This document shows, one piece after another, positions 2,630 to 9,864 of a stretch of DNA of 64,000 bases (position 1 is its first letter; the number at the start of each line of letters is the position of its first letter). The notes under the pieces are model-generated. The model had not been told where the DNA came from and ran no database searches. It was given only the letters and a program-made list of their open reading frames with translations. This stretch comes from Octopus vulgaris. Lineage: Eukaryota. The position numbers were made by a program, and so were the translations under genes. The stretch covers positions 23,746,001 through 23,810,000 of the forward strand of contig OX597834.1 in assembly GCA_951406725.2 (NCBI GenBank), given 5' to 3'.

Positions 2630-3247
2630 ATCCTGGTGATAAGCACAATTCCACTGCATCCGTTTCAGTTTGTGAATAGCTGTGAGAGAATAATTTAATG
2701 CAGATATCAAATAGAAGTAGCTTTTCTCTGGTGTGAAAGCATTGATGTTCTGTTAAATAACTCCTAGAGAATGATTTGCCACAAATATCACATGGCAACC
2801 TCACTAGTGCTGGTGCCAGGAAAATAGTACCCAATATTCTGGCCTGTTTAACTGTGTTTAGTTAATTTCCTACTTCTAGAGAACGATATACCACAGATAA
2901 CAAAGTGACATGATTTCTCTCCTGAATGAATGTATTTGTATCTAGTCAAGTCTGTTTCCAGAGAATGATTTGCCATAGATATCACATAGATATGTTATGC
3001 ACACTACTGTCATGGCTTCTCTCATGTTTGAATGTGTCTTTGAGTGGTTAAATTACATCTAGGAAGGAGAGAAGGATTTATCGCAAATATCAGTGGTGTG
3101 GATTTTCTCCTGCGAGACTGCCTTTGTGAGTAATTAAGGTATATTTATTATAAAAAGATCTGCTACAGATATCACAGCAATATGATGGTCTTCAGGAAAA
3201 TCAATCCTTTTAGGCAGTTTTGCTTTTGCCTCTTCACACAATTTCAT
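2630..3247 (-). pseudogene. Decayed C2H2 zinc-finger coding exon
   Basis: Broken finger repeats ([33 protein letters not shown]) with frameshifts and lost Cys/His residues. The start context at 3247 (MKLCEEAKAKLPKRIDFPED) and its upstream sequence resemble those of the intact ZNFs ([19 protein letters not shown]). Confidence 0.8.
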
Positions 3248-4792
3248 TGATATTACTTTTCTCACTGTAACATGTATACATCATACTTAACAAGTATTTC
3301 TACAGTTTTATTTCTATCAATGAGGTCTTTGTTCTAATCTGAAGATTCTGGAAATTTCTTTGAAAATTAATTCAAGCTCATTCTGAATGCATTCAAGCAT
3401 AGATTTATAGATACCAGGTCATTTCTATTGCTGTTGCAATTATTGAAATTTTAAGATTAAGAGAAAATTTTCAAATTTGGTATATCGATATAATTTTTCA
3501 TGCTGAATCTGATTCTCTTATTCACTATTCCAACATTTTTTTTTTTTTTGAAAAATGTTACATAGGTTTAAAGTTTGATAATTTTTATCCAACCAGAAAA
3601 TAGGATCTGAAAGTTGGCATCTTTGGCATGAGAGGCTATCACAGAATGAAAGTAAAAATATTATAACCATAAAATTTCATTATATAAATTGAAAGCAAAA
3701 CATTATGATGGCATACATTATAAGAAGTTCTGAAGTTTTAATAATATTTAATGAACATTTAATGTAAAATGGTGAAACAAGCATGTAAAGAATTTAGAAA
3801 GGAAAAAAAGTTGAGAATAAAATTTTTTTGAAAAATATTACCAAACAAACAAACTATATGTTAAGGTTGGGGTTGGAGCTTAGGGTAGAAATGGACAAAT
3901 AGGAATATAAGCAATTTAGAAAGGGAAAATCCCAAATTAAATTTTTGGCAGAAGTGAAGTGTTTGCATCCCTACCCTAAACAGGAATCCAAAGAAATTTT
4001 TGAAAAAGAAAAAATTAGCAGAAGTGTTTGCATCTCTACCCACTTCTGTTTATTTTTTATTTTTCAAAAATTTCTTTGGATTCCTGTTTTTGATTTCAGA
4101 GATTATGATTCTGCCAAAAAAACACATTTTCAAAATATTAATTTCCCCCTCCCCATCCCAATTTTTTAATCCACACAGAAAAATACAGAGATTACAAACT
4201 TGCAAAAGAAATTTTTTTAATTAAATTTTAATTTTTCTTAAAAAACACTCAATTTCCCTCCCCTCCTCCACTTCCCAGCTTTCAGCTAACAACTTCATGT
4301 TTTACCCATGCGTAGATTTCTACTAAAACAATGGAATAAAAGTATCAAATCATTAGCAGAAAAACCTGACATGCTAGAAATAACAGCTAAATGACATAAT
4401 TTCTTAAAAAAGTTCATATTGAAGATCAGATTTTTAAATACGCTAATCAGAAAAAAGTTGGTTTCAATTGGAGTTGAGCTGTAGTTTTCCGCATGCAAAT
4501 AGCAAGAAATAACATAATCCATGTTTTACCCAGTGTGTATGTATGATCTCTGTATTTTTCTACACTGAATAAAAAAAAAAAATTTAATTGGGGTAGGGAA
4601 GGGGGAAATAAATTTTGAAAATGTTTTTTTTTTTGGCAAAATCATAATCTCCTATATCAAAAACAGGAATCCAAAAAAATTTTTGAAAAAATGCGAAAGA
4701 GTGCAAAGGCTTTACACCTGCCAAGTTCTTTTGTCAAAAATTAAATTAAAAAACAAACAAAAAAAAAAGCAATACATTTTTATTGAGAAAAT

Positions 4793-5683
4793 TCAAAAAC
4801 AAAAGCTTGAAATACACTCAAGGAGTTTCTCAAACAAATTACAATTCTTATATCTCTTGCGCCACATACTCTCACAGAGATACAAGTCAATGGTAGAACT
4901 TTCGGTCCCACAACGTTGTTTTCTCCGTCGTTTTAAAGGGATCCCTGTGTTTTCCACTAGTTTCATGTAGATACCACCTTCTGAGTTAACAAATTCCACA
5001 CTGTGGTTCACCGTTCTATAACGCAACTCGTAACCATCAATTTTAAGAATGGGAGAATAGGACTCCCAAATGTCACTGAAAATTGTGGTTCCTGGAAGAA
5101 CCGACTGACGTATGCATTCCTCTAGTGTGTCGCGATTCAGACATGATGCCGCGTAAAGGAAAACATCCTTGGTCTCGCGACACACTCCTCCAAACACCCA
5201 CTGCTCAGGTAGCAAACTTCTTCGGTTAGATTTACCTCTTGAGAAGACTATTTCGTCTAAGTCAACAGTCTTCCCAGGACCACCTATCTGAACTGGGTGG
5301 CGGAGCAAGTCCTCTGCACATATTTCACGAACATAGCTGTTGTAATCAACAGCTGTGCCGTGGTTGATCCCAAGTTCTTCAATACAAAAACGGATTGAAG
5401 TCAATTCCTTGGACCATGCGTAAAGGAAAAGCACTACAGTTTTAAGAGGAAGAGTGCTACCTTCCAACCATGTTCCTCTTCTGACAGAAATACGCACACC
5501 GCATGCTTTGTGGGAGCATCGCCAACAAATCGTTCCATCACGCATCCTTTTCTTCATATAGTGTTTGTTTGCACATAATTTCCTTTTAGGGATAATACCC
5601 TTTTCTTGTAAATAAGAAACCACATCCTCCTCAGTTTTCAATTTCTCCATCAGACTTGAAAGGTGAGAGTTGGCTGTGGCCAT
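4793..5683 (-). CDS. Merlin / IS1595-family (ISXO2-like) DDE transposase-derived protein, 296 aa, intact ORF
   Basis: First ATG at 5683 (MATANSHL...; the ORF track extends to a non-ATG start at 5836). N-terminal Zn-ribbon-like C-x3-H...WRC-x4-C, then SVRRGTWLEGS, IGGPGKTVDLDE, WVFGGVCR, PGTTIFSDIWESY, TVNHSVEFV, LVE and YLCESMWR, all typical of DDE_Tnp_IS1595. Strong acceptor at 5986-5987 and AATAAA at 4779-4784. Confidence 0.88.
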   Translation of the reverse strand: MATANSHLSSLMEKLKTEEDVVSYLQEKGIIPKRKLCANKHYMKKRMRDGTICWRCSHKACGVRISVRRGTWLEGSTLPLKTVVLFLYAWSKELTSIRFCIEELGINHGTAVDYNSYVREICAEDLLRHPVQIGGPGKTVDLDEIVFSRGKSNRRSLLPEQWVFGGVCRETKDVFLYAASCLNRDTLEECIRQSVLPGTTIFSDIWESYSPILKIDGYELRYRTVNHSVEFVNSEGGIYMKLVENTGIPLKRRRKQRCGTESSTIDLYLCESMWRKRYKNCNLFEKLLECISSFCF

Positions 5684-8600: not shown

Positions 8601-9572
8601 GACAGGTGTATAAAATATATTTCTGTGTACTTCTTTCTCTGTTCATTCGGAAATTGTTGTGCGCACACACACAAACACAAAACTTCTCAACACACTTAGC
8701 TGTTATTTTTAGCATACAGAATTTCGTAGTGAGGGCTTCACATGCCGTGATCCTGTTGCTGTTTCAATATAAATCTACGCAGCAGGATGGGGTGAGGAGG
8801 GGGGGGGTGTTGTTGATCAATTTCGGAGTTTTTCATAGAATATTTGAAATTAAAAATTTTGGAAACGTGTTTTTGTCCATATTCGGAGTCTCCGTCATCA
8901 AAAACATAAAAATCCGATGAAAAAAAAAAGGGGTGGGGTCGCTTTCGGAAGTGGGTGGTGGTGGTGGCTGGGCGCCAAACCCGCCTTTTTTTCAAGGTCA
9001 TGATTTTAAAATAAAAACAGTTCAAATCTGGGTCGTTGTTCAATTTAGGGATATTTAAAAAAGGAAATAAAAAGAGGAAAATAAATAGTGAAGGGACAAA
9101 AGTCAACATAAATATAGTGGACGTTCTTTTATTCTGTTGTTTTAGCCATTTGACTGCAGGCTAAAATTTAGGGTGAGGGTTAGAGTTAGTGACAGGATGT
9201 GGTCTCAGTTTTAGACGCAGCAAATGATTTCAGCTCAATAGAAGCCATAGGATTGGTTAAAATTTGAAAAATTAAACTTACAAATTACAATTTTCTCAAG
9301 AAAGCCAAGAGAAAAAAATGTTTTATTTTGACTCATTCTACCAGTATACGAAGTTTAAAAGAGTTTAGTTGACTAGAAATTGTGTTGAAAACTGCCGTTC
9401 AAAAGGAAAAGATCCCTTAGTGCCAAAATTAGTTACTATTTGTAGCAGGGGCTCATCATTTAGTCCGAGATTAGCCGTCATTCAACAGATCTATAACAAG
9501 TAGGTTGTTCTATCGATTTTCGAAGAAAAGACAGATGAATTAAATAAAATAAACATTTAAAAAAAATAATAC

Positions 9573-9864
9573 CTCATATAATAATAACTATGTTGAATTG
9601 GCAGATAGTAGCTTGGTCTTCGTCGATTGTTGGCTTCCAAGTGTTAGTTAAGGAATGTTGTAGATTGTCGTGTGTAACTGTTGCTGGTGTACGTCAAGAC
9701 AAAGGGATTAATGTACGTTGTGTATGGAATTGGGTTCACAAAACAGTGAAACCAACAGTATCTTGGAAACAGCAGAGGAACCGTATTACATAAGCCTTTA
9801 CCTTCGTGGCTTACTGAGGAATGAATGGAAGGAGTGGGGGGAAACAATGTTGGATGTTCATTGG
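9573..9864 (-). promoter_or_regulatory. Putative ZNF-type promoter (CCAAT) and non-coding first exon, copy upstream of the Merlin ORF and ZNF pseudo-exon
   Basis: Close paralogue of 16666-16956 and 19497-19787, and more distantly of 25866-26197. All share a minus-strand CCAAT (here 9860-9864) and end in GAG|GTAT (donor GT at 9572-9571). Confidence 0.55.

Follow-up and report, generated by a model that had tools for sequence, protein, structure and literature searches.

The window analysed here, a 64,000-nt stretch of the 2.8-Gb genome of Octopus vulgaris (C21:23,746,001-23,810,000), contains a transposase gene of the Merlin superfamily (hereafter the C21 gene) that lies within the 5' untranslated region (5'UTR) of the second exon of a C2H2 zinc-finger (ZNF) gene. 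The transposase is spliced from the first exon of the ZNF gene, and the finger open reading frame (ORF) behind it is dead. Taken as a whole, the evidence indicates that the transposase has probably become a host gene whose product is a DNA-binding protein that no longer transposes. The locus, all of it on the minus strand, is composed as follows, in the order of transcription; TIR stands for terminal inverted repeat, MITE for miniature inverted-repeat transposable element and HMM for hidden Markov model.

9573-9864, minus strand: ZNF-type promoter and non-coding exon 1 module, with a CCAAT box at 9864-9860 and the donor GAG/GT after 9573
5986-9572, minus strand: intron, GT...AG, containing repeats, among them a Merlin-type MITE at 9415-9177
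5920-6013, minus strand: acceptor of the host ZNF exon 2 (AG at 5987-5986) and the first 66 nt of the ZNF 5'UTR, located by the leader HMM and the junction
5884-5919, minus strand: remnant of the Merlin left end (TIR), its terminal GG lost, located by its match to sister copies
5684-5883, minus strand: element-derived 5'UTR, 71% identical to copy L088 over 207 columns (E 4e-23)
4793-5683, minus strand: intact 296-aa ORF of Merlin/IS1595 type
4779-4784, minus strand: AATAAA, the likely poly(A) signal
3417-3634, minus strand: 3' subterminal region of the element and remnant of its right end (TIR), located by HMM (E 3e-20) and by a match to copy L083
3248-3416, minus strand: decayed remainder of the ZNF exon-2 5'UTR, located by the leader HMM and, separately, by its similarity to the leader of the neighbouring gene ZNF-B (z 2.5)
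2630-3247, minus strand: dead C2H2 finger ORF with six finger remnants (3182-2668) that carry stops and frameshifts

An initial annotation of this DNA had already described the CCAAT box, the donor and acceptor sites, a leader of about 300 nt (302 nt by our count) ahead of the intact ORF with its IS1595-type domain, and the decayed ZNF exon downstream, all of which are confirmed. The AATAAA motif is likewise present, although it starts 8 nt past the stop codon (at 4784) rather than 9. The absence of a TIR pair, which had also been reported, does not hold, because remnants of both ends are detected through sister copy L083. On the left, 5917-5884 matches L083 at 32 of 34 nt (E 1e-11) and also matches L088, L111 and L013, and the core 13-mer of this end occurs once in the window; on the right, 3634-3419 is 77% identical to the right end of L083 and reaches to within 3 nt of its tip (E 9e-47). 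An HMM of left ends from the core subfamily missed the left remnant, which was detected only with copies of the sister subfamily.

The 302-nt leader comprises 66 nt of ZNF type, with the acceptor, followed by 236 nt of the element, and is element sequence from 5878. An HMM built from nine ZNF exon-2 acceptors and leaders matches 6013-5962 (E 0.0011 in 266 kb) and, weakly, 3430-3391 (E 0.13), and it does not find another ZNF acceptor ahead of the dead finger ORF. Because the acceptor precedes the left end, and the ZNF leader and finger ORF resume past the right end, the element is located in exon 2 rather than in the intron: it occupies the 5'UTR, 66 nt behind the host acceptor and ahead of the finger ORF. 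When the flanks of the insertion are joined, the leader HMM scores 23.4 bits across the joint versus 14.4 bits for the left flank alone, the best of 60 random controls reaching 23.3 bits, which lends modest support to what would be a single ZNF exon split by the element. A target-site duplication, 8-9 bp long in Merlin elements, can no longer be recovered here, the best pair matching at 5/8 positions. From the broken relatives, an element of ~1.9 kb can be outlined whose ends start with GGATCTTTTC and which shows 8-bp duplications in L017 and L025. In the C21 copy, ~195 nt of the 5' region is missing, including the element's own CCAAT box, which is present in 4/4 sister copies and absent here. 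The GGATCTTTTC that stands 15 nt before the ATG was considered as an element end and rejected, as sister copies share this internal stretch.

Transcription from ZNF exon 1, with the finger exon replaced by the transposase, had been predicted together with a junction between 9573 and 5985, and both predictions are borne out. Four sequencing runs (4 studies, 3 organism labels) were mapped over 5800-6300 as contigs only; none is on record as RNA, and they are treated as RNA on the strength of the spliced junction itself. In each of the four, one contig spans 5800-5987, leaves the genomic sequence at the acceptor (5986) and carries on into the end of the exon-1 module, with 234, 26, 66 and 26 letters past the acceptor matching the module end (9575, 16668, 19499), and the intronic stretch 5988-6054 is uncovered. 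The join in these contigs is the splice junction from the GAG/GT donor to the AG acceptor, connecting exon 1 to 5985. More broadly, 63-95% of the words of 4700-6000 are present in 20 of the 24 listed runs, which are presumed to be RNA. As the module copies ending at 9573, 16666 and 19497 are identical in their last 68 nt, the exon-1 copy used is assigned by proximity. Differences between the module versions lie at 9641, 9746, 9759 and 9800, and one contig ends right where the versions first diverge, a hint that both are transcribed. The ATGs upstream in the leader encode only 1-16 aa and exon 1 is non-coding, so no fusion protein is made. Contig ends implied at 4772, 4714, 4897 and 4742 fall close to the AATAAA motif; as contigs cannot show ends, these give a weak hint of a 3' end there.

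The exon-1 module that now serves the C21 gene is younger than the gene itself. The window holds four copies of the module, one more than had been counted, at 9.6 kb, 16.7 kb and 19.5 kb (a 99.6% tandem duplicate) and as a diverged copy belonging to ZNF-B; a further diverged copy precedes a ZNF gene 0.6 Mb away. The block 9417-9983 differs from the copy of the neighbouring gene ZNF-A at only 18 of 566 nt, which corresponds to ~4.5 My at a rough 0.0036/site/My, the rate being taken from the text of PMC13282606. The present module is thus a recent copy of the ZNF-A module, most simply explained by conversion or re-duplication, in agreement with a caveat of the initial annotation that it might have been duplicated or converted later. 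A search between 9400 and 6000 for an older exon-1 remnant found none. MITEs with the GGATCTTTTC ends of the Merlin family lie at window positions 9415-9177, 905-705 and 30607-30248, and one GGATCTTTTC-ended MITE marks the edge of the recently copied block. A tandem duplication of 2.83 kb (99.6%) at 16651-22312 doubles the ZNF-A exon-1 module and is either very recent or an assembly artefact.

A genome search, in which the best-scoring 132 of 1590 candidates were examined, shows the C21 ORF to be single-copy; the next copies are 62% identical in amino acids and 76-78% in DNA, which rules out many near-identical copies elsewhere. Intact counterparts do exist in other species, as full-length 296-aa proteins (P0001 and P0002) that are 99% identical in O. 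sinensis and 88% in O. bimaculoides and form one clade (support 100/100); a search of representatives yielded no further close relatives. According to the text of PMC13282606 and PMC10700109, O. vulgaris split from O. sinensis 2.5 My ago and from O. bimaculoides 13-34 My ago. The core copies of the family, with a pairwise synonymous divergence (dS) of 0.25 and a ratio of nonsynonymous to synonymous divergence (dN/dS) of 0.88, are a dead burst, which dates to ~34 My at the same rough rate; the C21 insertion dates to ~45-55 My. The C21 gene is immobilised, single-copy and expressed, and lacks the marks of an active element: its ends are decayed, near-identical copies are missing, and its catalytic motifs are eroded.

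Younger multi-copy Merlin families (L057-L075), whose members are 87-99% alike and have intact ORFs, are present in the genome at 30-37% amino-acid identity to the C21 protein. The 22-nt family end motif has 63 exact genomic copies, and a related MITE is present in 10/86 unrelated loci. Another relative, the P0007 cluster (4 assemblies), is a 264-aa protein with an open frame that has lost both catalytic D residues and the E segment. It shares the derived changes E141D, V179A and R182L with the C21 protein, yet groups with the C27 gene (see below) and subfamily B; testing rejected neither of the two placements (p 0.15, 0.50), and P0007 may be a fourth capture or a distant orthologue. Two loci, L008 (which overlaps L009) and L030 (of another family), were excluded from the trees.

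The open frame of the C21 gene stands out against its relatives. All 25 sampled relatives are broken, each by at least 2 lesions; across 6038 codons they carry 90 stops and 57 frameshifts, an average of 6.9 per ORF. The C21 copy carries no lesion on a longer branch (0.16 vs a median of 0.11; P ~4e-5), and 0.013 such copies would be expected among 300. Survival of the frame by chance is unlikely. Compared with O. bimaculoides, 35 of 296 residues differ, where neutrality would predict 57-123 (published 13-34 My split and published rate), and dN/dS is 0.24-0.61 against this published neutral range. In residues 1-131, only 1 of 19 family-conserved columns has changed, vs 23% in broken copies. The frame is protected and the amino-acid sequence is held loosely; purifying selection at the amino-acid level is weak or unproven. 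We consider it probable that selection has retained the C21 gene.

The protein consists of a CHCC zinc motif (C37, H41, C56, C61), a helical domain and an RNase H-like domain. It matches Pfam PF12762 (DDE_Tnp_IS1595) with E 1.1e-5 and 25.9 bits, just below the 27-bit cut-off, and is 40-50% identical to many PF12762 proteins. The acidic residues D143, D204 and E244 are kept within eroded motifs, the HTQ and W around the third acid being lost, and the O. bimaculoides protein carries E144K. The predicted structure (predicted local distance difference test, pLDDT, 77) contains a cluster of strands resembling a zinc ribbon, a segment of three helices and an RNase H-like core, while residues 227-265 are unmodelled (pLDDT <50); a fold search returned only generic integrase and transposase matches (template modelling score ~0.25). 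For the O. bimaculoides protein, a published CD-search in the supplement of PMC8101967 gives a weak FLYWCH-superfamily match at 33-64 (E 0.005). No longer, fused octopus relative was found among 4804 candidates, which is weak evidence on this point.

Two further intact, full-length members of the family, both annotated genes in O. sinensis, occupy the same kind of site:

L040:7039-6173 (C29:22,210,039): Merlin ORF of the C29 gene, behind a ZNF exon-2 acceptor
L042:7230-6379 (C27:24,616,230): Merlin ORF of the C27 gene, behind a ZNF exon-2 acceptor

These genes, at 22.21 Mb of C29 and 24.62 Mb of C27, sit among ZNF genes, and each is closely preceded by the acceptor and leader of a ZNF exon 2 (E 5.6e-11 and 2e-41, respectively); the leader of the C27 gene is 89% identical to that of a neighbouring ZNF gene. 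A ZNF acceptor precedes 3/3 intact copies vs 0/63 independent broken copies (Fisher 2e-5) and 0/20 loci of the younger Merlin families. The 63 comprise 25 distinct loci of a first set of 26 and 40 more, minus L107 (C27:23.12 Mb) and L119 (C27:22.85 Mb), two broken segmental duplicates of the C27 gene that are 95% alike mutually; L107 was the one leader match in the second set of 40. In a tree of 28 copies, a single clade of the three intact genes is rejected (approximately unbiased test, p 1e-7), as is a grouping of C21 with C29 (p 0.008), and the C27 copy belongs to a different subfamily. The C29 and C27 captures are likely to have been independent and to have followed the same route. Over ~6 kb behind the C29 and C27 ORFs, no finger remnant was found on the same strand. 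The C27 gene is followed after 600 nt, in the same orientation, by an intact 287-aa ORF that belongs to a different Merlin family (L042:5770-4907); the C27-gene duplicates are followed by broken ORFs of that family.

These observations can be assembled into a stepwise scheme. The insertion 66 nt behind the acceptor made the transposase ATG the first long ORF without fusing it to a host protein, because the ZNF genes here have a non-coding exon 1 and a single coding exon. The AATAAA motif would then have ended the mRNA, so that the finger ORF lost expression and decayed. With both element ends decayed and the CCAAT region of the element lost, the transposase would have come to depend on the ZNF promoter, whose copy was presumably refreshed from ZNF-A ~4-5 My ago, and selection would have held the frame open for ~45-55 My. 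The zinc and helical N-terminal domain is predicted to bind to the ends of Merlin elements and to MITEs, thereby dampening the activity of both or regulating genes nearby; that it acts as such a repressor or regulator is a tentative proposal, with the balance tilted slightly against it. More speculatively, ZNF clusters could serve as a chassis for domestication, their two-exon design allowing a transposase to be swapped in for the finger array, with at least two and probably three Merlin-derived regulators policing Merlin and MITE ends in the ZNF expression domain; we regard this larger scheme as possible though somewhat doubtful.

Several observations weigh against a retained, DNA-binding host protein. 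Conserved columns of the catalytic part have changed at 13 of 55 positions, much as in broken copies (22%), and the branch dN/dS of 0.49-0.85 by triplet is inseparable from that of broken sisters (measured against core copies, 0.49 compared with 0.52 for L029). The claim of the initial annotation that the gene was kept by the host is likely to be right, but dN/dS is weak evidence for it. The N-terminal part, although its conserved core is intact, holds 22 of the 35 interspecies differences; the neutral range is built on published dates, not on a measured dS; the C27 gene shows a ratio of nonsynonymous to synonymous differences (pN/pS) of 1.1-1.2 against its two broken duplicates, on 12-14 synonymous changes; and for neither the C29 nor the C27 gene did a counterpart in O. 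bimaculoides appear in the search. In addition, the kept DDE residues suit a nuclease role equally, the runs are only presumed to be RNA and are represented by contigs only, the exon-1 module copy is assigned by position, the genes used to build the leader HMM are neighbours of the three intact loci, and the control flanks measured 1.5-2 kb. The weak dN/dS, the C27 pN/pS of 1.1, the erosion of catalytic columns at the broken-copy rate and the decay of two C27-gene duplicates would all suit an expressed relic, in which a useless protein rides on the ZNF promoter and its frame has stayed open by luck or because truncated products are harmful. Such a relic is nevertheless unlikely, since ~10 lesions would be expected and 0 are seen, the frame is intact in three species, interspecies differences are fewer than neutral, the N-terminal core is kept, and all three intact copies share the same ZNF setting. 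A domesticated protein that is still catalytic, acting for example in programmed excision or in MITE mobilisation in neural tissue, appears less probable still. D143, D204 and E244 are kept in both species, the triad positions are acidic in the C29 and C27 proteins as well, the RNase H-like fold is matched, and the C-terminal part has been the more conserved since the species split (13/165 vs 22/131 residues changed, p 0.03); against this stand the loss of HTQ and W, E144K in O. bimaculoides, the 13/55 changed columns, the unmodelled segment 227-265 and the related P0007, which does without both D residues and the E segment.

The initial annotation favoured landing in the ZNF intron with exon trapping, for which the acceptor would have been supplied by the transposon or lain adjacent, and offered a local TATA promoter (~6110-6123, ~6187-6196) as an alternative. 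Intron landing is the usual vertebrate route according to the text of bioRxiv 2020.05.07.082677, and the leader HMM match of the C21 gene is the weakest of the three intact loci; the positions of both ends inside exon 2 refute it, and the lack of another ZNF acceptor ahead of the dead finger ORF also counts against it. Over the TATA-like region, only short partial matches were found, of contigs that run into other sequence, none of them reaching the exon. Both versions are very improbable. An ordinary young transposon is the least credible explanation of all: young multi-copy Merlin families do exist in this genome, but at a great distance from the C21 protein, and the C21 copy has no relative above 77-78% in DNA and has decayed ends.

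Capture of a Merlin transposase by exon 2 of a ZNF gene, the reading preferred here, can be compared with several known systems. Like members of the Merlin superfamily and IS1595-IS1016 as described in the text of PMC8101967, the C21 protein has a DDE_Tnp_IS1595 domain and a length of ~300 aa, and copies of its family have ends starting GG (lost in the C21 remnants) and 8-bp duplications in L017 and L025; unlike those elements, the C21 copy is immobile, single and spliced from a host exon. The same source raises the suspicion that protist Merlin ORFs lacking TIRs have been domesticated, and its supplement includes the O. bimaculoides protein among 191 hits, without discussion in the portion of the text examined. 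Recurrent host capture of transposases, often at zinc-finger loci, is described for KRABINER, SETMAR and PGBD3-CSB fusion genes (bioRxiv 2020.05.07.082677), where the parent transcript is lost and DNA-binding domains are favoured; in these, intron landing provides a transposon acceptor (9/9 traced) and a host domain such as KRAB is fused, whereas the C21 gene shows exon landing, a host acceptor and no fused host coding sequence. The octopus gene works like vertebrate transposase capture, yet it is not a member of that class, having neither a fused host domain nor a transposon acceptor; the word Merlin is absent from the examined text of that preprint. Close relatives of the octopus protein are named 'mab-31-like' by NCBI, a link to C. 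elegans MAB-31 by database names alone, with an independent origin. As a nuclear factor that takes part in the patterning of sensory rays (PMC2921377, where the portion examined makes no mention of transposons), MAB-31 is a possible precedent for a Merlin-derived regulator.

Transposon-derived transcription factors are already reported for Octopus, with domestications of THAP, CENPB, HTH-Psq, ZBED and FHY3 in the text of PMC10027918, in the main text of which Merlin, IS1595 and ISXO2 have 0 occurrences. No description of the octopus Merlin genes was found in the literature, and five accessions occur in 0 main texts, a search whose scope left out most subscription papers and the bioRxiv supplements. 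The relation of octopus ZNF expansions to transposons is stated as an open question in the text of PMC12513265. Here, three expressed or annotated genes show a ZNF locus that has adopted a transposase through exon landing, a host acceptor and an ORF swap, unlike the vertebrate fusion genes, and ZNF clusters are likely to act as repeated nurseries for taming transposases. This makes the ZNF-transposon link directly testable, with candidate binding sites known, brings Merlin into the group of superfamilies that have likely been tamed in molluscs and, if true, would provide a KRAB-free invertebrate route to an arms race between ZNF genes and transposons.

A C2H2-ZNF cluster on the minus strand occupies the left part of the window and extends further to the left, where the adjoining 20 kb contain three intact ZNF ORFs. 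Its members ZNF-A and ZNF-B are located as follows:

13887-14903, minus strand: ZNF-A ORF
22909-24009, minus strand: ZNF-B ORF

The two ORFs are 94% identical, and ~147 nt of the ZNF-B leader (24177-24029) is absent from the ZNF-A leader (at 14923). Positions 1-300 (minus strand) hold what we take to be the start of a mariner-like transposase fragment, judged by eye from its motifs. To the right of the cluster, an exon of a UTP14 gene lies at 47312-47935 on the plus strand (Pfam E 3e-24).

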